The notes beneath the pieces were generated by a model. That model did not search any database and was not told where the DNA came from. It saw only the letters and a list, made by a program, of their open reading frames with translations. From Escherichia coli (GTDB lineage: Bacteria; Pseudomonadota; Gammaproteobacteria; Enterobacterales; Enterobacteriaceae), in NCBI RefSeq assembly GCF_002854065.1, contig NZ_CP024147.1: a stretch of 64,000 bases of DNA. The stretch is one strand, 5' to 3'. Numbering within the stretch: the first letter of the stretch is position 1; the number at the start of each line of letters is the position of its first letter. A program made the position numbers and the translations under genes. Below, one piece after another: positions 1 to 8,674 of the stretch.

Positions 1-629
1 AAAAAGAGCCGCCTGCACAGGCTGCTACACAATGAAAAAAGAATCATTCCACAAGCAAGGCACTTATGAGCAAGGTTAGTTGCCCTGGTGCTAACATAAC
101 GGTTAAGGCGGTAAGAACAAGCCACTAGCGGCTAAACGTTTTCCTTCCGAGTTGACAGTTTCCTGCTTGAGAGCTGCTCGTTTGTTAGCCAGAACAGGTT
201 AACGGATAAAATCAGTATATCCATAATAAATAAATAGTTGTTTAGCATTTATTTAAATAATGCCTTCCGAATAATACGCACTAAAATAATAAACAAGCTA
301 GGACTATCCAGTACTGCTAATTGATAGGCGCTCATGAAAACTGGAGAGATAATTGCTTCTGATTAGCCATCAATGCAATTACATCCTGGTCTGGGGATTC
401 CCGGGGGTTAAGTAGCGTGATTAACCATCATAAATATTGATTGAACTCATTTACCTAAAAAGCGCCATTTTGATAGGCTCGACTTAACTCGTTGACCATT
501 TACAGGATTGTAACGTTGGAAATCTTTTTTTAACCCACTGAAAAGTATCTCTTAAATATTTTTCATACATAAAAATTCATGGTCCGTTCAGTACGGATCC
601 GATTTTGTATGGGTTAAAAAAGGTACGTT

Positions 630-1238
630 ATGAAAGTTACATGGACCGTCACGCCTGTGGGGTATCAGCGCATCGCGAAACGATGCCCTTCATGCAACAT
701 TAAACGGGACTTCACGCCGTCAGGTGCATTTCGGGTTAATTCACAAAAGAAGGTGCTGGACGTGTGGAGTATCTATAAATGCACACACTGTGATTACACC
801 TGGAATATCTCCCTGTTTTCGCGTCTGCACGTCAGCAAAATTGACCGCCAGCTTTATCATCGACTAATGACAAACGATGCCGCCACGGTGCAGCACTTTG
901 CATGTGATATCGCGATGCTGAAGCGGAACAATGCAGAGCTATCGGGTCGGCCTGATTTTCACGTTCAGGAGCGCTGGCCGGTAAGCATCACCGCCCACCA
1001 GCGGGTTCGCGTTAGTGTCAGGATCTCCCGTTCATTTCAGGTAAGTCTGCTGTCGATTTTGAAGCAGCAGCTCATGCTGAGCGCTGGTGAGATTCAGAGA
1101 ATGGTGGAAGCAGGGCATATAAGTGGCGTTACACTGAAGTTGCTTAAATCGAGAAAGCTGAAGGCAGCGGAATATCACTTTCAGCTGACTGCGGAAATGT
1201 TATATGCCCGGCGCAGGATCGTTCTGACGCATCGTTAA
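630..1238 (+). CDS. Hypothetical protein with N-terminal CxxC...CxxC zinc-ribbon-like motif
   Basis: 202-aa ORF; CPSC and CTHC pairs near the N-terminus; no recognisable catalytic motif; lies in island cargo next to alpA-like gene. Confidence 0.45.
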   Translation: MKVTWTVTPVGYQRIAKRCPSCNIKRDFTPSGAFRVNSQKKVLDVWSIYKCTHCDYTWNISLFSRLHVSKIDRQLYHRLMTNDAATVQHFACDIAMLKRNNAELSGRPDFHVQERWPVSITAHQRVRVSVRISRSFQVSLLSILKQQLMLSAGEIQRMVEAGHISGVTLKLLKSRKLKAAEYHFQLTAEMLYARRRIVLTHR

Positions 1239-1454
1239 AATATTAAGCTCCCCTGAGGTAATAAACGCCCGTGTGGCAGCGGTTCAACATAATGCCAGAT
1301 AGGCCAGGGATAGGGGAGCTTCAGTTTTTCGGCTTCTGAATTGAGAACTTTAGTGAATGGGGTGATAGAGGATATCGCTTGAATTGTGCCGAGTCTAATG
1401 GTGCTTTAAGGATTGGGATATCGGGAAAGGTGTAGCTTAATTGAATGGGTTGTA

Positions 1455-1667
1455 TCAATGACCGCGTGAATCGGCAATGCGTTGCTGTAACCATAATTCG
1501 ACTTCACTTTTCTTCCAGCGGGAGCACCGGCCCAGCTTAATTGGCTTCGGGAACAGTCCGTCTTTTATCAACTTATAGAACCATTTATCCGTCAGCCCCG
1601 TTAGCTTTGTGATGAAGCGCATATCCACCAGTTGGTCATCAAGCAAAGAAATTTGTTCTGTCATGAT
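1455..1667 (-). CDS. alpA: AlpA-family prophage transcriptional regulator (excisionase-like)
   Basis: About 70 aa from internal Met (MTEQISLLDDQLVDMRFITKLTGLTDKWFYKLIKDG...SRWKKSEVELWL), typical AlpA-type helix-turn-helix pattern; start chosen by length match to family. Confidence 0.65.
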   Translation of the reverse strand: MMTEQISLLDDQLVDMRFITKLTGLTDKWFYKLIKDGLFPKPIKLGRCSRWKKSEVELWLQQRIADSRGH

Positions 1668-2755: not shown

Positions 2756-3673
2756 ATGTTGCATTACGATATGATCCGCTATGAAATAATGTACCTAAAA
2801 ACGCTGGACAGGCATTTCAATACAGATCACTCGTTACTGTGCAGTACTTATGATAGGCCCGATGATTTTCGACGCTTGATCTCTCAGATACTTGAACGGC
2901 ATTTTCTTGGCGATCAGGACAGAATCAAAATTGCGCGGAAAACACTTAAAGAATGGGCTGACCTGCAACTGATTGATAAAGAATATTTTGATTGTTTCAA
3001 AGGCACACCAAGAGCATCGTGGTTTGCTCACCATTATATTTTTGAATACCCAGTATTACCTGCAGGGTTGAAACTTGGTGGGTTGGGGAATGACGTCGGT
3101 TGTTCAGGTGGTTTTAATTCTCTTTTAATGAACGATAATATCTTCACAAATCTTGATTTCTCTAATTTGAATATCGACCTGGACGATATAGATTGGGACC
3201 TGATAACAAATCCACAGGCCACTGCTTCGAAAAAAACGAAACGCGTTTTCTCCCGATTTTATCTGAACGCGGGAGCAAGTACCGATCTGTACAACCCCAC
3301 TCCGGTAACTGAGCGTGAACTCATCAATGGTGTGATGAGGTACATTGATGAAGCACCATGCTCACTTGGAGATAAGATCACTTATTTCAAAAAACTGCAT
3401 GAGCGCTGGCTTGAGCAATATGATTTTTTTCTAACAGATTTTGACTGGATGTCACGTGATGATGAAACTCAGTTAGTATATCTCTGGGACTATCTCAAAG
3501 GAAAGGGACGAATAGCGAGCTATCTTCGCCCTTATAATACGTCTATGCGTTATGACATGATTATTGCGGCTATGGATGTGTGGAACGCCCAACCTGAAGA
3601 GAAGCTGGAGTTTATTGAGAAGATGAAACATGCCTGGCAGGCAGCGAAATCTTACCGGAAATCTGCTAAATAG
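2756..3673 (+). CDS. Hypothetical protein (305 aa), island cargo, no recognised domain
   Basis: Long uninterrupted ORF with an acidic, Asp-rich central segment (NLNIDLDDIDWDL); convergent with the 158-aa gene and the Gabija operon. Confidence 0.5.
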   Translation: MLHYDMIRYEIMYLKTLDRHFNTDHSLLCSTYDRPDDFRRLISQILERHFLGDQDRIKIARKTLKEWADLQLIDKEYFDCFKGTPRASWFAHHYIFEYPVLPAGLKLGGLGNDVGCSGGFNSLLMNDNIFTNLDFSNLNIDLDDIDWDLITNPQATASKKTKRVFSRFYLNAGASTDLYNPTPVTERELINGVMRYIDEAPCSLGDKITYFKKLHERWLEQYDFFLTDFDWMSRDDETQLVYLWDYLKGKGRIASYLRPYNTSMRYDMIIAAMDVWNAQPEEKLEFIEKMKHAWQAAKSYRKSAK

Positions 3674-4035: not shown

Positions 4036-4512
4036 CTAAGTATTACTGGGATTATTAAAAGGGATAATACTGGCCAATCCGTCATCTACATCAAGACCAT
4101 AGGCAACTGCTATTTCTGCCACAGAGGTACCACACTTTTTTCGCAGTTTAAAAAGCGCTCGCTCAAGCATAGATACTTGCACAGGATGATCAAATCGGAT
4201 GAACTGAGGGGAGCCAACACTGTCACCGAATTCTTGGCATGCCTTTCTCATTTTCCTTAATTGATTTGCTAAATATGAATCGCTCGGTAAACCTTGTAGG
4301 ATTTTAGTCAATTCAGATCTAATGCTGATAACACTCTGAATGCAATGACTAGTATCCTCCATATCGACAGGATTGAAAAGAACTCGCTTGTCCTCAAGAA
4401 AAATGACGATCTTCTTCGCTTCGTCAGCTTCTATTATTGGAGCATTCCACTGAATCCCGAATATAGGGCAGCTAAGGCCTGTAATATTTTTATAGATTCG
4501 TTCAAATTTCAA
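4036..4512 (-). CDS. Hypothetical protein (158 aa), apparent TTG start with strong Shine-Dalgarno
   Basis: AAGGAG box about 6 nt upstream of TTG at 4512..4510; same strand as and downstream of gajA/gajB; no recognisable motif. Confidence 0.5.
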   Translation of the reverse strand: MKFERIYKNITGLSCPIFGIQWNAPIIEADEAKKIVIFLEDKRVLFNPVDMEDTSHCIQSVISIRSELTKILQGLPSDSYLANQLRKMRKACQEFGDSVGSPQFIRFDHPVQVSMLERALFKLRKKCGTSVAEIAVAYGLDVDDGLASIIPFNNPSNT

Positions 4513-5085: not shown

Positions 5086-6903
5086 CTACCTTAAACCTGC
5101 CCCTCTCATTCGCTCCTCCAGTTCATCCAGAAATGGGGAACGCCCTAGACGCATAGGGCCGTAGCGACCATCAACAAAACCGGAATACAGCATATGCACC
5201 TCGTCCCGTGCGCGGGTCAGCCCCACATAGAAAAGACGTCGGCTTTCACGCAGCTTCTCTGGCGTCTCATTACGCCACGGCAAATTCCCCAGATCTAAGC
5301 CGACCATGATAACCACGTCATATTCGCAACCTTTGGCTGAGTGAAGTGTCAGCAAATTGAGGTGCTCAGGTGAACCGTCACGACCACCTAGGCTCGTGAT
5401 ATCCAACATCGCTAACGCACCGCCTTCGGCAAGTGCTGCAGTCATGCGATCTAGTTGCTCAGCCTGATCAGAAAGCGTTGGTTCAGTTGCCAGCAGGGAA
5501 TCAACGAGACCGTTGCGCAACGACGCGACAAAATCGGATGCAGAATGTTGGTCGGCACGAAGTGCCCAAAGTAGCCTGGTTAACTCCTGCCCCTTACTCC
5601 GGGCGCATGCATCATCCAGCCTTGCCCGATGAAATGCCAGATAACGGTCTATAAGTCCGCGCAGTTGAGGGCGCCCGATACGCCAACCGCCAGCACACCA
5701 TGCTGCGCAATCCTCCACCCAGCTCGTCAAGGCAACTTTGCGATAAGGTGCTGCGGTATCCACACGAATGTAATCAAAACCGCTAGCTGTCACCGCATCG
5801 GCCACAACATCGCCGGCACGGTAGTCCTTGTACAGAATGGCGATATCACCCAGTGTTCGGCCCGGCTTAGCAGCCAACGCAGCAGGAATAATCTGCTCGA
5901 CAGCATAGACAGCCTGATCCCCCAAGCCATCCGGACACAGCTGGAACGCAATGGTTGTCTGGCGGTTTGGGTCGTTTGCGCGATAACCACGAACCTCACC
6001 CAACACCATCTCCGATGCATTCACGATGTCCGCTCCTGATCTATAGTTCAACTGGAGCCGGACTGTTTCAACGTCTCTCCTGCCTGCCAGTTCTAGTAGT
6101 AACGCACCATCGGCACCAGTGAAACCGTAAATAGATTGGTCTGCATCACCCACTGCAAATAAGCGTACGCCTCCCTCGAAAGCCAGACGTTTGACCATAC
6201 GATGGAGTGCCACGCCCAAATCTTGATATTCATCTACCGCAAGGATCGGAAATTTCGCCTGTACTAGGGGCAGAACCCAATCATGCTCAATTATCAGACG
6301 CTGACCAAATATCACCATATCGTCGTAGTCTATCAGCCCTTGCTGCCGCAATGCAGCTTCGTAGGCCTCGGCCCATGCAGCGAGTTCCTCCTCTGTACGC
6401 CAGGCAACGCTGTTGCGATTCAACACCGAACGGCGATGCCGTCCGAGATCAATAGCCTTATAGGGATGGTTTGCGCCAAAGAGACGGTCACCAGATTGTC
6501 GAAGTAACCGTTCGCTCTCGCGCTGAGACGCTACTGACAGCGGAAATGGGATTGGCAGATCGGCCAGTCGCCCATAGGGCATCAACAGATGGCGCAAGCA
6601 GAACCCATGAACGGTTCCAATAAAGAGATTCGGTGCCTCTCTAAGCCCCAGCGCTTCGAGACGACGGGTTAGCTCGCGTGCGCATTCTTGGCTATATGTG
6701 ATACATGCCGCACCACGTGGAGCTTGAACATCCTCAGCTAGGATTCGTGCCAGCTTCAGCACAAGCGTCTTTGTCTTACCACTCCCCGGGCCCGCGAGCA
6801 CCACGCAGTGTCCCTGGGAGTGATACGCGGATAACTGGCCCGGATTCCCGGCCAGCTCGGCAGCCTGAGCTAAGTAGGCTGCACTGACACTACGTGACGG
6901 CAT
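5086..6903 (-). CDS. gajB: Gabija GajB-like UvrD/PcrA-family helicase
   Basis: Walker A VLAGPGSGKTKT, DEYQD box (LAVDEYQDLG) and further UvrD-like motifs; proposed start MPSRSV overlaps gajA stop by about 14 bp; longest ORF extends to 7005, so start is uncertain. Confidence 0.75.
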   Translation of the reverse strand: MPSRSVSAAYLAQAAELAGNPGQLSAYHSQGHCVVLAGPGSGKTKTLVLKLARILAEDVQAPRGAACITYSQECARELTRRLEALGLREAPNLFIGTVHGFCLRHLLMPYGRLADLPIPFPLSVASQRESERLLRQSGDRLFGANHPYKAIDLGRHRRSVLNRNSVAWRTEEELAAWAEAYEAALRQQGLIDYDDMVIFGQRLIIEHDWVLPLVQAKFPILAVDEYQDLGVALHRMVKRLAFEGGVRLFAVGDADQSIYGFTGADGALLLELAGRRDVETVRLQLNYRSGADIVNASEMVLGEVRGYRANDPNRQTTIAFQLCPDGLGDQAVYAVEQIIPAALAAKPGRTLGDIAILYKDYRAGDVVADAVTASGFDYIRVDTAAPYRKVALTSWVEDCAAWCAGGWRIGRPQLRGLIDRYLAFHRARLDDACARSKGQELTRLLWALRADQHSASDFVASLRNGLVDSLLATEPTLSDQAEQLDRMTAALAEGGALAMLDITSLGGRDGSPEHLNLLTLHSAKGCEYDVVIMVGLDLGNLPWRNETPEKLRESRRLFYVGLTRARDEVHMLYSGFVDGRYGPMRLGRSPFLDELEERMRGAGLR

Positions 6904-8674
6904 CGCAGATATACTCCAGTGCTTCACGAATGTAATCCGGGCATACATCCTCCGACACCGAGGGTGCCAGCGCTTGGGCGAACCGCCCTTTGCCAATTCG
7001 CTCAATCAGTTTCAACAACCGGACATTATCAAGCTGGTCCGTGTCATCCACCCACGCCTGTATCCTGTTCAGAGTAGCTCGTCTAGGAGACAATTCCTGC
7101 TCGATAACCAACTTCATGGCTTCGCCCAGTCCACCGGTAAACAGCTCTGGCTCCAGAGTGGTCTCATTGACGAAGCATCCAAAATCTCCGGCACGTGCAA
7201 TCACCTCCTCGGTAGTCATATCATCATGATCAACATCGCTCTCAAGCACGTCTAAGATATTGATAAATCTCTTACGAACCAGCGGCTCTCCATCCTCCTC
7301 AGGATCGCGGTCTGTCAGAATCACATGTGGAATATTGAGTCCCCGCGGCCCTAGGAGCTTCACATACGGAGTGAAATTTGTTCCACCGATCGAGCACACC
7401 GTGATCCCAAGCATATCTAGGGGAATATTAAGAGCATCAGCGAATGCTGGGACAAGAAAGCGTTCAGCATCCCCTTCCACCAAGATCACCCCACGTGAAA
7501 AGAATATTTCGCCGCGAGTGACATCGATATAGCGCTGCAGATCATCTTCGTCCCGCGGCGTAAACGGTGCGTTTGCCGTTGAAACCGCAATCGTCTTCCC
7601 TCCCTCCGGATCATGGCGCAGCAAAACGATGGATCTGATTGGTGTGACGCTGGCGATATGCGGGGAATGGGTGGTCAGGATCGTTGTCAACGGTGTTCCT
7701 TCATCACCATTGTCTCCGTCAGTCCCTAGGAAATAACGGTAAACCAGGCGCTGTACGTGCGGATGTAGGTGCGCTTCCGGCTCCTCGACTACGAAAAACG
7801 TATGGTCTCGTTCTCCGTCATTAACAAGACGATCAAGTTCGAGGCTTTTTAGGGCAAGAAAAATCAGATTAGCTGTCCCCAGACTGGCATCGCCAATGCC
7901 ACGAATGCCACTATCAAGCAGCAAACGCAGGCTACGTAGCAGCGCATCAACGCGAGTCGGTGCAAGTCCGAGCGATACCGGAACGGCATGTTGCTCACCT
8001 GCGATAGCTATCAACCTTTCGCTAATTCGTTCGGCTGTCGCTGCCACCTCATCATGATCAGCCAGTTCCCGTTGAGCCTCATCAACTTGGGTTTGAATCT
8101 CCTCACGAGTCTCGTCGTCCAGAGATGCGGACAGTTCTTCAATAAGCGGTCTTAAGGGTGAATTACGCCAGCTTGAAAGGTCCTTCTCGGCATCACGCAA
8201 CGCGCCTTGAACATCAATGGGCAACATACGGCGAAAGGCACCACCAATATGCATGTCAGGATCAGCTCCACCGAAGATCACATACTCATAATCTTTTAAC
8301 GATTCAGGAGCTCGATTTAACGCGGTTTTGGGCTGAAAGCGGTAGGTAAGACGGGCCACCATCGGAGGCCCCGGATTTAGGACACAGTCATTCAGATGAG
8401 CCATCAATCGGGGATCGTCAGTGAACTCAGTAAGATCCACTGAAATTTCGATGGTCTCCCCCAGTTTGTCTTCGCCCAATCCATCCCAAAAATGTTCAAA
8501 ACCCAGTTGACGGTCACGCTCAGACAACCCTGGGTCAAGAATCAGCTGCAGGCCGCGAATAAAATTGCTCTTGCCAACCTTGTTTTCACCAACAATAACA
8601 ATACTCTCACCCGTTTCAACATCAACATCGGAGAAGTTGGCGAAATTAATTAACCGGATTCGGGAAATCCGCAT
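6890..8674 (-). CDS. gajA: Gabija GajA-like OLD-family ATPase/TOPRIM nuclease
   Basis: 594 aa; N-terminal ABC ATPase P-loop (VGENKVGKSN); C-terminal TOPRIM-like acidic motifs (ILVEGDAE, ILTDRDPEE); immediately upstream of and overlapping the UvrD-like helicase gene. Confidence 0.8.
   Translation of the reverse strand: MRISRIRLINFANFSDVDVETGESIVIVGENKVGKSNFIRGLQLILDPGLSERDRQLGFEHFWDGLGEDKLGETIEISVDLTEFTDDPRLMAHLNDCVLNPGPPMVARLTYRFQPKTALNRAPESLKDYEYVIFGGADPDMHIGGAFRRMLPIDVQGALRDAEKDLSSWRNSPLRPLIEELSASLDDETREEIQTQVDEAQRELADHDEVAATAERISERLIAIAGEQHAVPVSLGLAPTRVDALLRSLRLLLDSGIRGIGDASLGTANLIFLALKSLELDRLVNDGERDHTFFVVEEPEAHLHPHVQRLVYRYFLGTDGDNGDEGTPLTTILTTHSPHIASVTPIRSIVLLRHDPEGGKTIAVSTANAPFTPRDEDDLQRYIDVTRGEIFFSRGVILVEGDAERFLVPAFADALNIPLDMLGITVCSIGGTNFTPYVKLLGPRGLNIPHVILTDRDPEEDGEPLVRKRFINILDVLESDVDHDDMTTEEVIARAGDFGCFVNETTLEPELFTGGLGEAMKLVIEQELSPRRATLNRIQAWVDDTDQLDNVRLLKLIERIGKGRFAQALAPSVSEDVCPDYIREALEYICDAVT

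Follow-up and report, generated by a model that had tools for sequence, protein, structure and literature searches.

A DUF1062 protein with a putative zinc ribbon, a divergent S4-like tail and a candidate attenuator leader in an Escherichia coli genomic island

In translational attenuation, as known from ermC, cat86 and cmlA, the 3' end of a short upstream open reading frame (ORF) masks the Shine-Dalgarno (SD) sequence of the next gene, and when a ribosome arrests on the leader the helix comes apart and the downstream gene is translated. Genes wired with such SD-masking leader ORFs classically respond to ribosome-targeting antibiotics or to translation trouble. Control by the gene product itself is found for ribosomal protein S4 and other ribosomal proteins, which repress their own mRNAs. 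Among proteins with S4 domains, the stand-alone Hsp15 and RqcP act on the large subunit, where they bind tRNA or rRNA, and in pseudouridine synthases, TlyA and TyrRS the S4 domain does the targeting. The locus described here has a predicted leader of the attenuator type and encodes a basic protein with an S4-like tail.

The window analyzed is a stretch of 64,000 nucleotides of E. coli DNA. It contains, as claimed in an earlier note on this DNA, an ATG-initiated ORF at 630–1238 on the plus strand that encodes 202 residues. The note called the product an orphan, a description that does not hold. The domain search that it recommended assigns the protein to Pfam DUF1062 (PF06353; residues 36–167, 147.8 bits against a cut-off of 23, E=4e-43), and RefSeq already names the identical protein in E. 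coli genomes "DUF1062 domain-containing protein". The gene is a bona fide, already annotated family member and is known as an object. At face value, this zinc-ribbon ORF beside alpA is an ordinary entry in a catalogued DUF. The DUF1062 annotation comes without function, fold or regulation, and no functional study of the family was found in the literature searched, where it has just two mentions, both in tables. The domain reading and the leader presented below are additions made here. The features of the locus are listed in Table 1.

Table 1. Features of the DUF1062 locus in the window, and Firmicutes loci with an upstream CD3324-family gene.
Feature	Position	Strand	Remarks
Cassette left edge and conserved upstream block	422..486	+	Similarity to other E. 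coli contexts begins here
Extended -10-like element, TGnTAGGCT	471-479	+	T471, G472, T474, A475, C478 and T479 invariant in 16 enterobacterial loci
SD-like AGGA of the mini-ORF	504..507	+	GG 505-506 invariant in 16 loci
Candidate mini-ORF, TTG GAA ATC TTT TTT TAA (LEIFF*)	516..533	+	Five codons; UAA stop invariant
P1, 5' strand (CUUUU-U-UUAACCCA)	524..537	+	Mini-ORF end; predicted anti-SD strand; pairs with 610-623
P2 hairpin (UGAAAAGUAU / AUAUUUUUCA)	539..565 (539-548/556-565)	+	Stems conserved, 7-nt loop variable
P3 hairpin (GGUCCGU/ACGGAUC)	581-599 (581-587/593-599)	+	Variable loop, followed by U-rich tail GAUUUUGUA to 609
P1, 3' strand (UGGGUUAAAAAAGG)	610..623	+	Holds the DUF1062 SD, AAGG 620-623, 6 nt before AUG 630
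DUF1062 CDS, residues 1-67	630..830	+	Five-stranded beta domain with C19, C22, C51 and C54; pLDDT 95-98
DUF1062 CDS, residues 68-135	831..1034	+	Three short helices (near-invariant N82-D83) and a beta hairpin
DUF1062 CDS, residues 136-202 and stop	1035..1238	+	Divergent S4-like (alpha-L) domain and basic tail
Inverted repeat, 18 nt	1237-1254 / 1312-1329	.	83% complementary, 57-nt spacer, T run at end
alpA-family HTH gene	1455..1664	-	Pfam Phage_AlpA 4.3e-8; neighbour only, outside the unit
CD3324-family loci	~5.4-5.9 kb in each locus		L037, L038, L041, L047, L050, L053, L055-L057, L060
CD3324-family loci, continued	~5.4-5.9 kb in each locus		L061, L066, L073, L074, L078, L079, L081, L085

The region is present in 13 of 5,426 complete E. 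coli genomes. Relatives of the protein comprise 301 matches among clusters at 90% identity and 804 clusters at 50% identity (E≤1e-3), and a search with a 17-sequence alignment found at least 597 loci in species-representative genomes (one genome per species). They are distributed over Proteobacteria, Firmicutes, Actinobacteria and Bacteroidetes, the taxa in representative genomes being Enterobacterales, Pseudomonas, Rhizobiales, Clostridia, Negativicutes, Bacilli, Enterococcus, Eggerthellaceae and Bacteroidales; further carriers are Streptomyces, Agrobacterium and Klebsiella plasmids. None of the longer members was found fused to another domain.

The two CxxC pairs noted previously correspond to C19-P-S-C22 and C51-T-H-C54, and these positions are conserved in the family. 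Across an alignment of 118 diverse full-length homologues, C51, C54 and W46 never vary, and 117 sequences retain C19 and C22. The outcome that the note named as refuting its observation, an ORF without conservation or homologues without the Cys ligands, is not what was found. Residues kept in at least 97% of the members are C19, C22, R35, N37, D44 and R65. The window protein has every one of these family-wide residues, as well as one extra cysteine at residue 92. Near-invariance extends to W5, F34, Y49, W58, N59, N82 and D83, in addition to R35, N37, D44 and R65. Most of the invariant polar and aromatic positions fall within the N-terminal domain. The Pfam model, compared with the window protein, leaves out the first CxxC (residues 19–22) and the end of the S4-like tail.

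The AlphaFold2 model, obtained from a 118-sequence alignment, has a pLDDT of 94.2 and a pTM of 0.83. It includes a zinc-ribbon-like beta domain, in line with the zinc ribbon named in the earlier note. No close solved relative of the model was found. Strands E15-19, E24-39, E42-51 and E57-67 are modeled at pLDDT >95, and two CxxC knuckles, kept across homologues, are located on beta hairpins in the pattern of a four-Cys zinc ribbon. The N-terminal domain is a putative zinc ribbon of this kind, which would bind zinc through the four cysteines. Its best matches, weak and all non-significant, are zinc ribbons of the TFIIS/RPB9 and eL42/L44e types. It shares with them two CxxC knuckles bracketing long beta hairpins and an aromatic residue after the second knuckle (IYKCxxCxxTW), but differs in a longer spacer of 28 residues between the knuckles and in having no acidic hairpin tip. 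A search of the PDB with the window sequence returned noise only (TDP2), and NCBIfam gave nothing beyond a sub-threshold match to the VdcD zinc ribbon.

Residues 136–193 of the model form a helix-helix-strand...strand unit. The consensus of this tail in the 118 members is RLDxLLxxxLxLSRxxxxxLxxxGxI. Pfam S4 (PF01479) matches 16 of the 118 (best E 1.3e-5), and the window protein has no S4 HMM match at E≤0.1. Designed repeat proteins aside, a profile of the tail retrieves only RsuA, uS4, RluD and YabO/RqcP, at E values of 0.04–1.2. The two hallmark arginines of the S4 motif (RLD...SR) are replaced in the window lineage by S139 and A152; of the 118 members, 100 have R/K at the first of these positions and 84 have R at the second. 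Since these arginines are replaced and the S4 evidence is weak, we label the tail as divergent S4-like, a reading that is consistent but weak, and do not file the protein as a member of the S4 family. Overall, we have high confidence in the assignment to DUF1062 and in the description as a zinc ribbon with a divergent S4-like tail.

The window protein contains 33 K+R against 13 D+E (pI 10.4). The basic character previously ascribed to the C-terminal half is present there, but is not confined to it, as the pI values of the three thirds are 9.8, 10.8 and 10.7. The protein appears to be a strongly basic factor of the RNA-binding type.

Similarity to other contexts begins at 422–427 and ends near 1259, shortly past the stop codon; therefore, the unit that moves is a cassette of ~840 bp. 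In our best reading, window positions ~422–1259 form a self-contained cassette, consisting of a promoter region, a structured leader of ~140 nt, the gene for the 202-residue protein and a terminator-like repeat. The extended -10-like element, which a consensus promoter scan of the window did not report, would be the promoter and would place the transcription start near 486–487. The inverted repeat between the DUF1062 gene and alpA, which converge, may terminate transcription from both sides. In E. coli 19KM1766N (L004, 5401–8000), a MerR-family gene and an IS256 element are inserted exactly at the left junction of the cassette (window ~423–427), and window positions 1–427 match the far side of the insert at 84% identity. 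The edge of the cassette thus acts like a site of insertion or recombination.

The gene was previously described as divergent from or adjacent to alpA. The two genes are adjacent, but they are arranged tail to tail with a gap of 216 nt and thus converge. In the 13 E. coli genomes, the DUF1062 gene always lies just left of an alpA-YagK/YfjJ module in a CP4-type island. Outside E. coli, alpA and yagK homologues occur within 6 kb in just 3 of 83 loci, all of them in the lineage with at least 81% identity, and most homologues are found in ordinary chromosomal contexts. The adjacency is restricted to the island lineage and is incidental. On these counts the linkage to alpA is rejected, and, with the genes convergent and the linkage not conserved across homologues, the idea of an AlpA-associated island regulator is not supported. 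Proximity in the island is the sole likeness to AlpA regulators (Phage_AlpA, PF05930), to which the protein has no relationship in sequence or fold. As a whole, the earlier interpretation as a nucleic-acid-targeting factor or regulator is partly supported.

Downstream neighbours are heterogeneous across the family, and no conserved downstream partner was found. In E. coli, Enterobacter, Klebsiella and a Klebsiella plasmid, a small VOC-family gene, an MdtM-type MFS transporter and DUF1349 recur on either side of the DUF1062 gene. The VOC gene, often accompanied by the MdtM-type MFS, DUF1349 and GNAT genes, precedes DUF1062 in the island lineage and follows it in Klebsiella (L001, 7624–11261; L008; L015; L021-L024; L086). 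In some E. coli and Enterobacter strains, a YbaK/EbsC gene is located between DUF1062 and alpA (L005, 8955–9482; L008, 6747–7274). YbaK/EbsC is an aminoacyl-tRNA editing protein of the Cys-tRNA-Pro deacylase family. Its position beside a family whose Gram-positive leaders may sense Pro-Pro (see below) is intriguing and may be a coincidence. The VOC and MdtM-type neighbours and the occasional YbaK would fit a setting of xenobiotics or translation fidelity, but are no proof of one.

Elsewhere in the window, a complete Gabija system occupies 5086–8674 on the minus strand, in the variable slot of the island and 4 kb from the DUF1062 gene. It consists of GajA, an ATP-dependent OLD-type nuclease of 594 aa (E=6e-234), and an overlapping GajB, a UvrD-like helicase of 639 aa (E=2e-258). 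The variable slot of the CP4-type island holds differing defence genes in differing strains; in other copies it contains a reverse transcriptase with a PRTase-like gene, DUF2971, or a 3'-5' exonuclease. A 305-aa protein at 2756–3673 (plus strand), without a match in Pfam, NCBIfam or PADLOC, adjoins YagK/YfjJ in every island copy examined and is followed in the window by a DUF6650 protein (4036–4512, minus strand).

The leader of ~140 nt (window ~487–629) is better conserved than the coding sequence. Across 16 enterobacterial loci whose proteins are 57–93% identical, the ~200 nt upstream of the start codon exceed the gene in conservation: positions -125 to -1 are 76–98% identical to the window, compared with 64–94% for the coding sequence and 41–89% for third codon positions. 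Identity falls to ~50% further upstream or downstream of the leader and gene. The RNAalifold consensus comprises three helices, P1, P2 and P3. The leader of the window folds at -36.7 kcal/mol, with a z-score of -3.75 relative to shuffled sequences. No Rfam family covers this leader or those of 10 Gram-positive loci.

A pattern derived from the leader recovered 54 metagenome loci. A DUF1062-type ORF comes next in ~34 of the 39 distinct metagenome leaders with enough flanking sequence, the others appearing disrupted or having an unresolved start; in readable loci, the motif occurs solely ahead of such ORFs. In the 58 leaders compiled, 98.8% of cells pair, against 35–63% when the partners are slid, P2 and part of P1 being elements of the search pattern, such that their conservation in metagenome sequences is partly by construction. 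Four compensatory pairs were seen overall. They are clearest in P3, where C-G changes to U-A in 6 of the 58 sequences; P1, which is almost invariant and paired in 98.9% of cells, contributes just one (A-U to G-C). P3 and its U-rich tail were also reported by a terminator scan and resemble an intrinsic terminator or a pause site.

One element of attenuator anatomy, a short SD-preceded candidate ORF directly upstream of the DUF1062 gene, is conserved in the 58 enterobacterial leaders. In each of the 16 enterobacterial loci, the AGGA is followed 5–9 nt downstream by an in-frame GTG or TTG start. The mini-ORF reads (V)LEIF[FSYC]* in other lineages. Where the TTG start is lost (to TTA or CTG, still Leu), which happened in roughly two events, a GTG is found directly upstream every time. 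The conservation of these signals is indirect evidence that the mini-ORF may be translated. In its last codon (F/S/Y/C), the middle base is free to vary; RNA constraint dominates at this codon, because the variable base is the bulged nucleotide 529 of P1. In the free leader, the SD (616–624) has a predicted unpaired probability of 0.07, and imposing a ribosome footprint on the mini-ORF (513–545) raises it to 0.51.

Three further candidate elements of the leader region were rejected. An ORF at 579–617 (MVRSVRIRFCMG*) has ACG in place of its ATG in the Klebsiella lineage, and its sequence is that of the P3 hairpin. A hairpin (AGGAUU/AAUCUU) with a U-run, considered as a terminator ahead of the mini-ORF, is not conserved in other lineages. 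An extension of P1 that pairs 508–516 with 623–632, including the start codon, is part of the minimum-energy fold of the window, yet is not conserved.

We clustered the neighbours of 75 loci and examined the leaders of distant homologues. In 18 Firmicutes loci, the gene immediately 5' of DUF1062 on the same strand encodes a small HTH protein of the CD3324 family (Mor-like; NF040785, PF08765; Table 1). The spacer between it and DUF1062 measures 100–300 nt and contains, in order, a terminator hairpin, a promoter-like motif, and a strong SD with a short ORF. The motif is conserved as ..GTTTAAGGT.. about 17 nt ..TACAAT, and is also found as ..RAGTRTTWAGGTWKR.. then TACAAT, 3' of the CD3324 terminator. 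The CD3324 protein may be a dedicated activator of the DUF1062 promoter. A literature search on CD3324 and its neighbours, and on zinc ribbons combined with S4, found no functional study.

The short ORFs in the Firmicutes spacers encode MKKVCDNPPVTFPIKF*, LKKILDYIPPFHNFLLV* or MRKSEKNPPIITFLF*. The Gram-positive leader peptide (MKKxCDNPPF...) is conserved at the amino-acid level with synonymous codon changes: Pro-Pro is retained although its codons differ (CCA, CCG, CCT, CCC), and flanking residues change conservatively. An SD-preceded ORF with PP[FVIY] precedes 27 of 52 Gram-positive DUF1062 genes, versus 9 of 427 other genes in the same loci. Its carriers include Enterococcus (MRMVIPPYLGQ*), Negativicutes and Eggerthellaceae (MKKLNNSVVPPVPAFLFE...). 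Other mini-ORFs, MIR* in Bacillus and Heyndrickxia and MTSFL* in Bariatricus, are each accompanied by an anti-SD:SD hairpin. All 26 Gram-positive leaders that were folded have a hairpin as their minimum-energy structure; its 5' arm (CCUUCCU-like) falls within the 3' part of the leader ORF or immediately behind it, and its 3' arm is the DUF1062 SD. A metric of SD pairing did not discriminate at a threshold of ≥6 of 13 nt (81% versus 67% of controls), but did so with a cut-off of ≥10. As we read the predicted folds, the arm segment closest to the Pro-Pro codons would be the one that pairs with the SD, and unwinding of the helix by a stalled ribosome would begin there.

No leader was seen in the Pseudomonas and Photorhabdus homologues. 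In its place, two Photorhabdus loci (L027, L029) have, ~130–200 nt upstream of the start, a tandem heptamer array, (CTGTTCT)n, and, beside a TTGACC box, an inverted repeat of 10 bp (AGATCTGATG...CATCA..CAGATCT).

These observations suggest how the gene could be controlled. In the resting leader RNA, the DUF1062 ribosome-binding site would be paired with the 3' end of the mini-ORF (V)LEIFF*; a ribosome lingering on the mini-ORF would open P1 and allow DUF1062 to be translated. The homologues in Firmicutes and Actinobacteria appear to follow the same design, with a Pro-Pro leader peptide and an anti-SD:SD hairpin. Peptide-bond formation at Pro-Pro is intrinsically slow and depends on EF-P; therefore, such a peptide is a plausible sensor of peptidyl-transferase trouble. 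DUF1062 synthesis appears to be coupled to ribosome behaviour, because three unrelated leader types converge on the attenuator anatomy, and we consider leader-mediated control of DUF1062 to be probable. Given the same design in distant homologues, we infer that ribosome stalling, for instance in response to an antibiotic, poor peptide-bond formation or termination trouble, leads to synthesis of the protein. Once made, it may be a protection or rescue factor that targets the translation machinery, namely the rRNA of the ribosome or the tRNA on it. A stall-induced factor of the translation machinery is the most economical reading of such a very basic zinc-ribbon/S4-like product, given the precedent of Hsp15 and RqcP. 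The whole chain, from attenuation similar to that of erm and cat to an RNA-binding protein made when ribosomes stall, is a realistic possibility that falls somewhat short of probable, and the ribosome as the target of DUF1062 is a tentative proposal.

Autogenous control is an alternative that draws on the same leader. The three-helix structure could be the binding site of the DUF1062 protein itself, with another structured RNA, which need not be the ribosome, as its target and the mini-ORF incidental. The protein has an S4-like domain, high conservation is seen in the unpaired junction nucleotides as well as in the helices, and both the free variation of the last mini-ORF "codon" at the bulged base and the exclusive position of the motif ahead of DUF1062-type ORFs in the readable loci are readily accommodated. 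The Gram-positive leaders fit less well, since they carry a simple anti-SD hairpin only and their peptide is preserved through synonymous changes, for which ribosome sensing is a better explanation. Autogenous control is rather unlikely; the two modes are not mutually exclusive.

The weak resemblance of the N-terminal domain to TFIIS/RPB9, CarD and Fin raises the question of whether the protein is a transcription-associated factor, with a zinc ribbon like these RNA-polymerase-binding modules and, in Clostridia, the Mor-like CD3324 neighbour as its partner. However, none of these similarities reaches significance, and the beta folds concerned are small and common. Downstream of the CD3324 gene come its own terminator and the promoter-like motif, as would be expected of an activator rather than a protein partner, and the S4-like tail and the control by leader peptides point to RNA and translation. 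We regard a role in transcription as improbable.

The invariant polar residues R35, N37, D44, Y49, N59, R65, N82 and D83 could alternatively make up a catalytic site for modification or cleavage of rRNA or tRNA, guided by the S4-like tail as in the enzymes mentioned above. This is quite improbable: no known catalytic fold or cofactor-binding motif was matched, and the domain is small (~135 residues), with many aromatic and basic side chains, as is more usual for a binding surface.

Anti-phage defence or island maintenance together with AlpA or the neighbouring defence genes, as the proximity of Gabija and the defence genes occupying the variable slot in other strains might suggest, is highly improbable, since the cassette lies outside that slot, PADLOC yielded only DrmA at noise level (E=0.0024, 13.7 bits) and PHROGs nothing, two of the three phage-collection records that carry DUF1062 are bacterial contigs, and, as described above, alpA/yagK adjacency is rare and most homologues reside in ordinary chromosomal contexts.

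Stall-induced synthesis of a translation-machinery factor is our preferred reading. What is absent from the annotation and the literature searched is the combination of a zinc ribbon with an S4-like tail, and the control by a leader ORF. A leader ORF that would mask the DUF1062 ribosome-binding site occurs in at least three phyla. This wiring makes DUF1062 a testable candidate for a translation-stress or resistance factor. It occurs in gut Clostridia and enterococci, and in Klebsiella, Salmonella and E. coli islands and plasmids. The leader peptides with Pro-Pro could, in turn, be a novel natural device for sensing impaired peptide-bond formation. More broadly, DUF1062 could represent an unrecognized class of stall-induced ribosome-binding factors, serving in antibiotic protection, in rescue, or as helpers at Pro-Pro or termination stalls, with dedicated leader peptides as sensors. 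This generalization is doubtful at present; if true, the class would be spread across Firmicutes and Actinobacteria and, by means of the mobile ~840-bp cassette, in enterobacterial islands and plasmids.

Compared with known systems, the locus resembles ermC, cat86 and cmlA in having a short SD-preceded ORF whose 3' part is predicted to base-pair with the downstream SD. The leader peptides of DUF1062 ((V)LEIFF*, and MKKxCDNPPF with its Pro-Pro pair) are unrelated to the known erm and cat peptides. The enterobacterial leader is a three-helix junction, in contrast to the simple hairpin of the ermC/cat86/cmlA type. Unlike those genes, the one regulated here is no known resistance determinant, and its attenuation is a prediction from sequence. 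With respect to the protein, its closest known counterparts include stand-alone S4 ribosome factors (Hsp15/HslR and RqcP/YabO) and the S4 domains of uS4, RsuA/RluD and TlyA.
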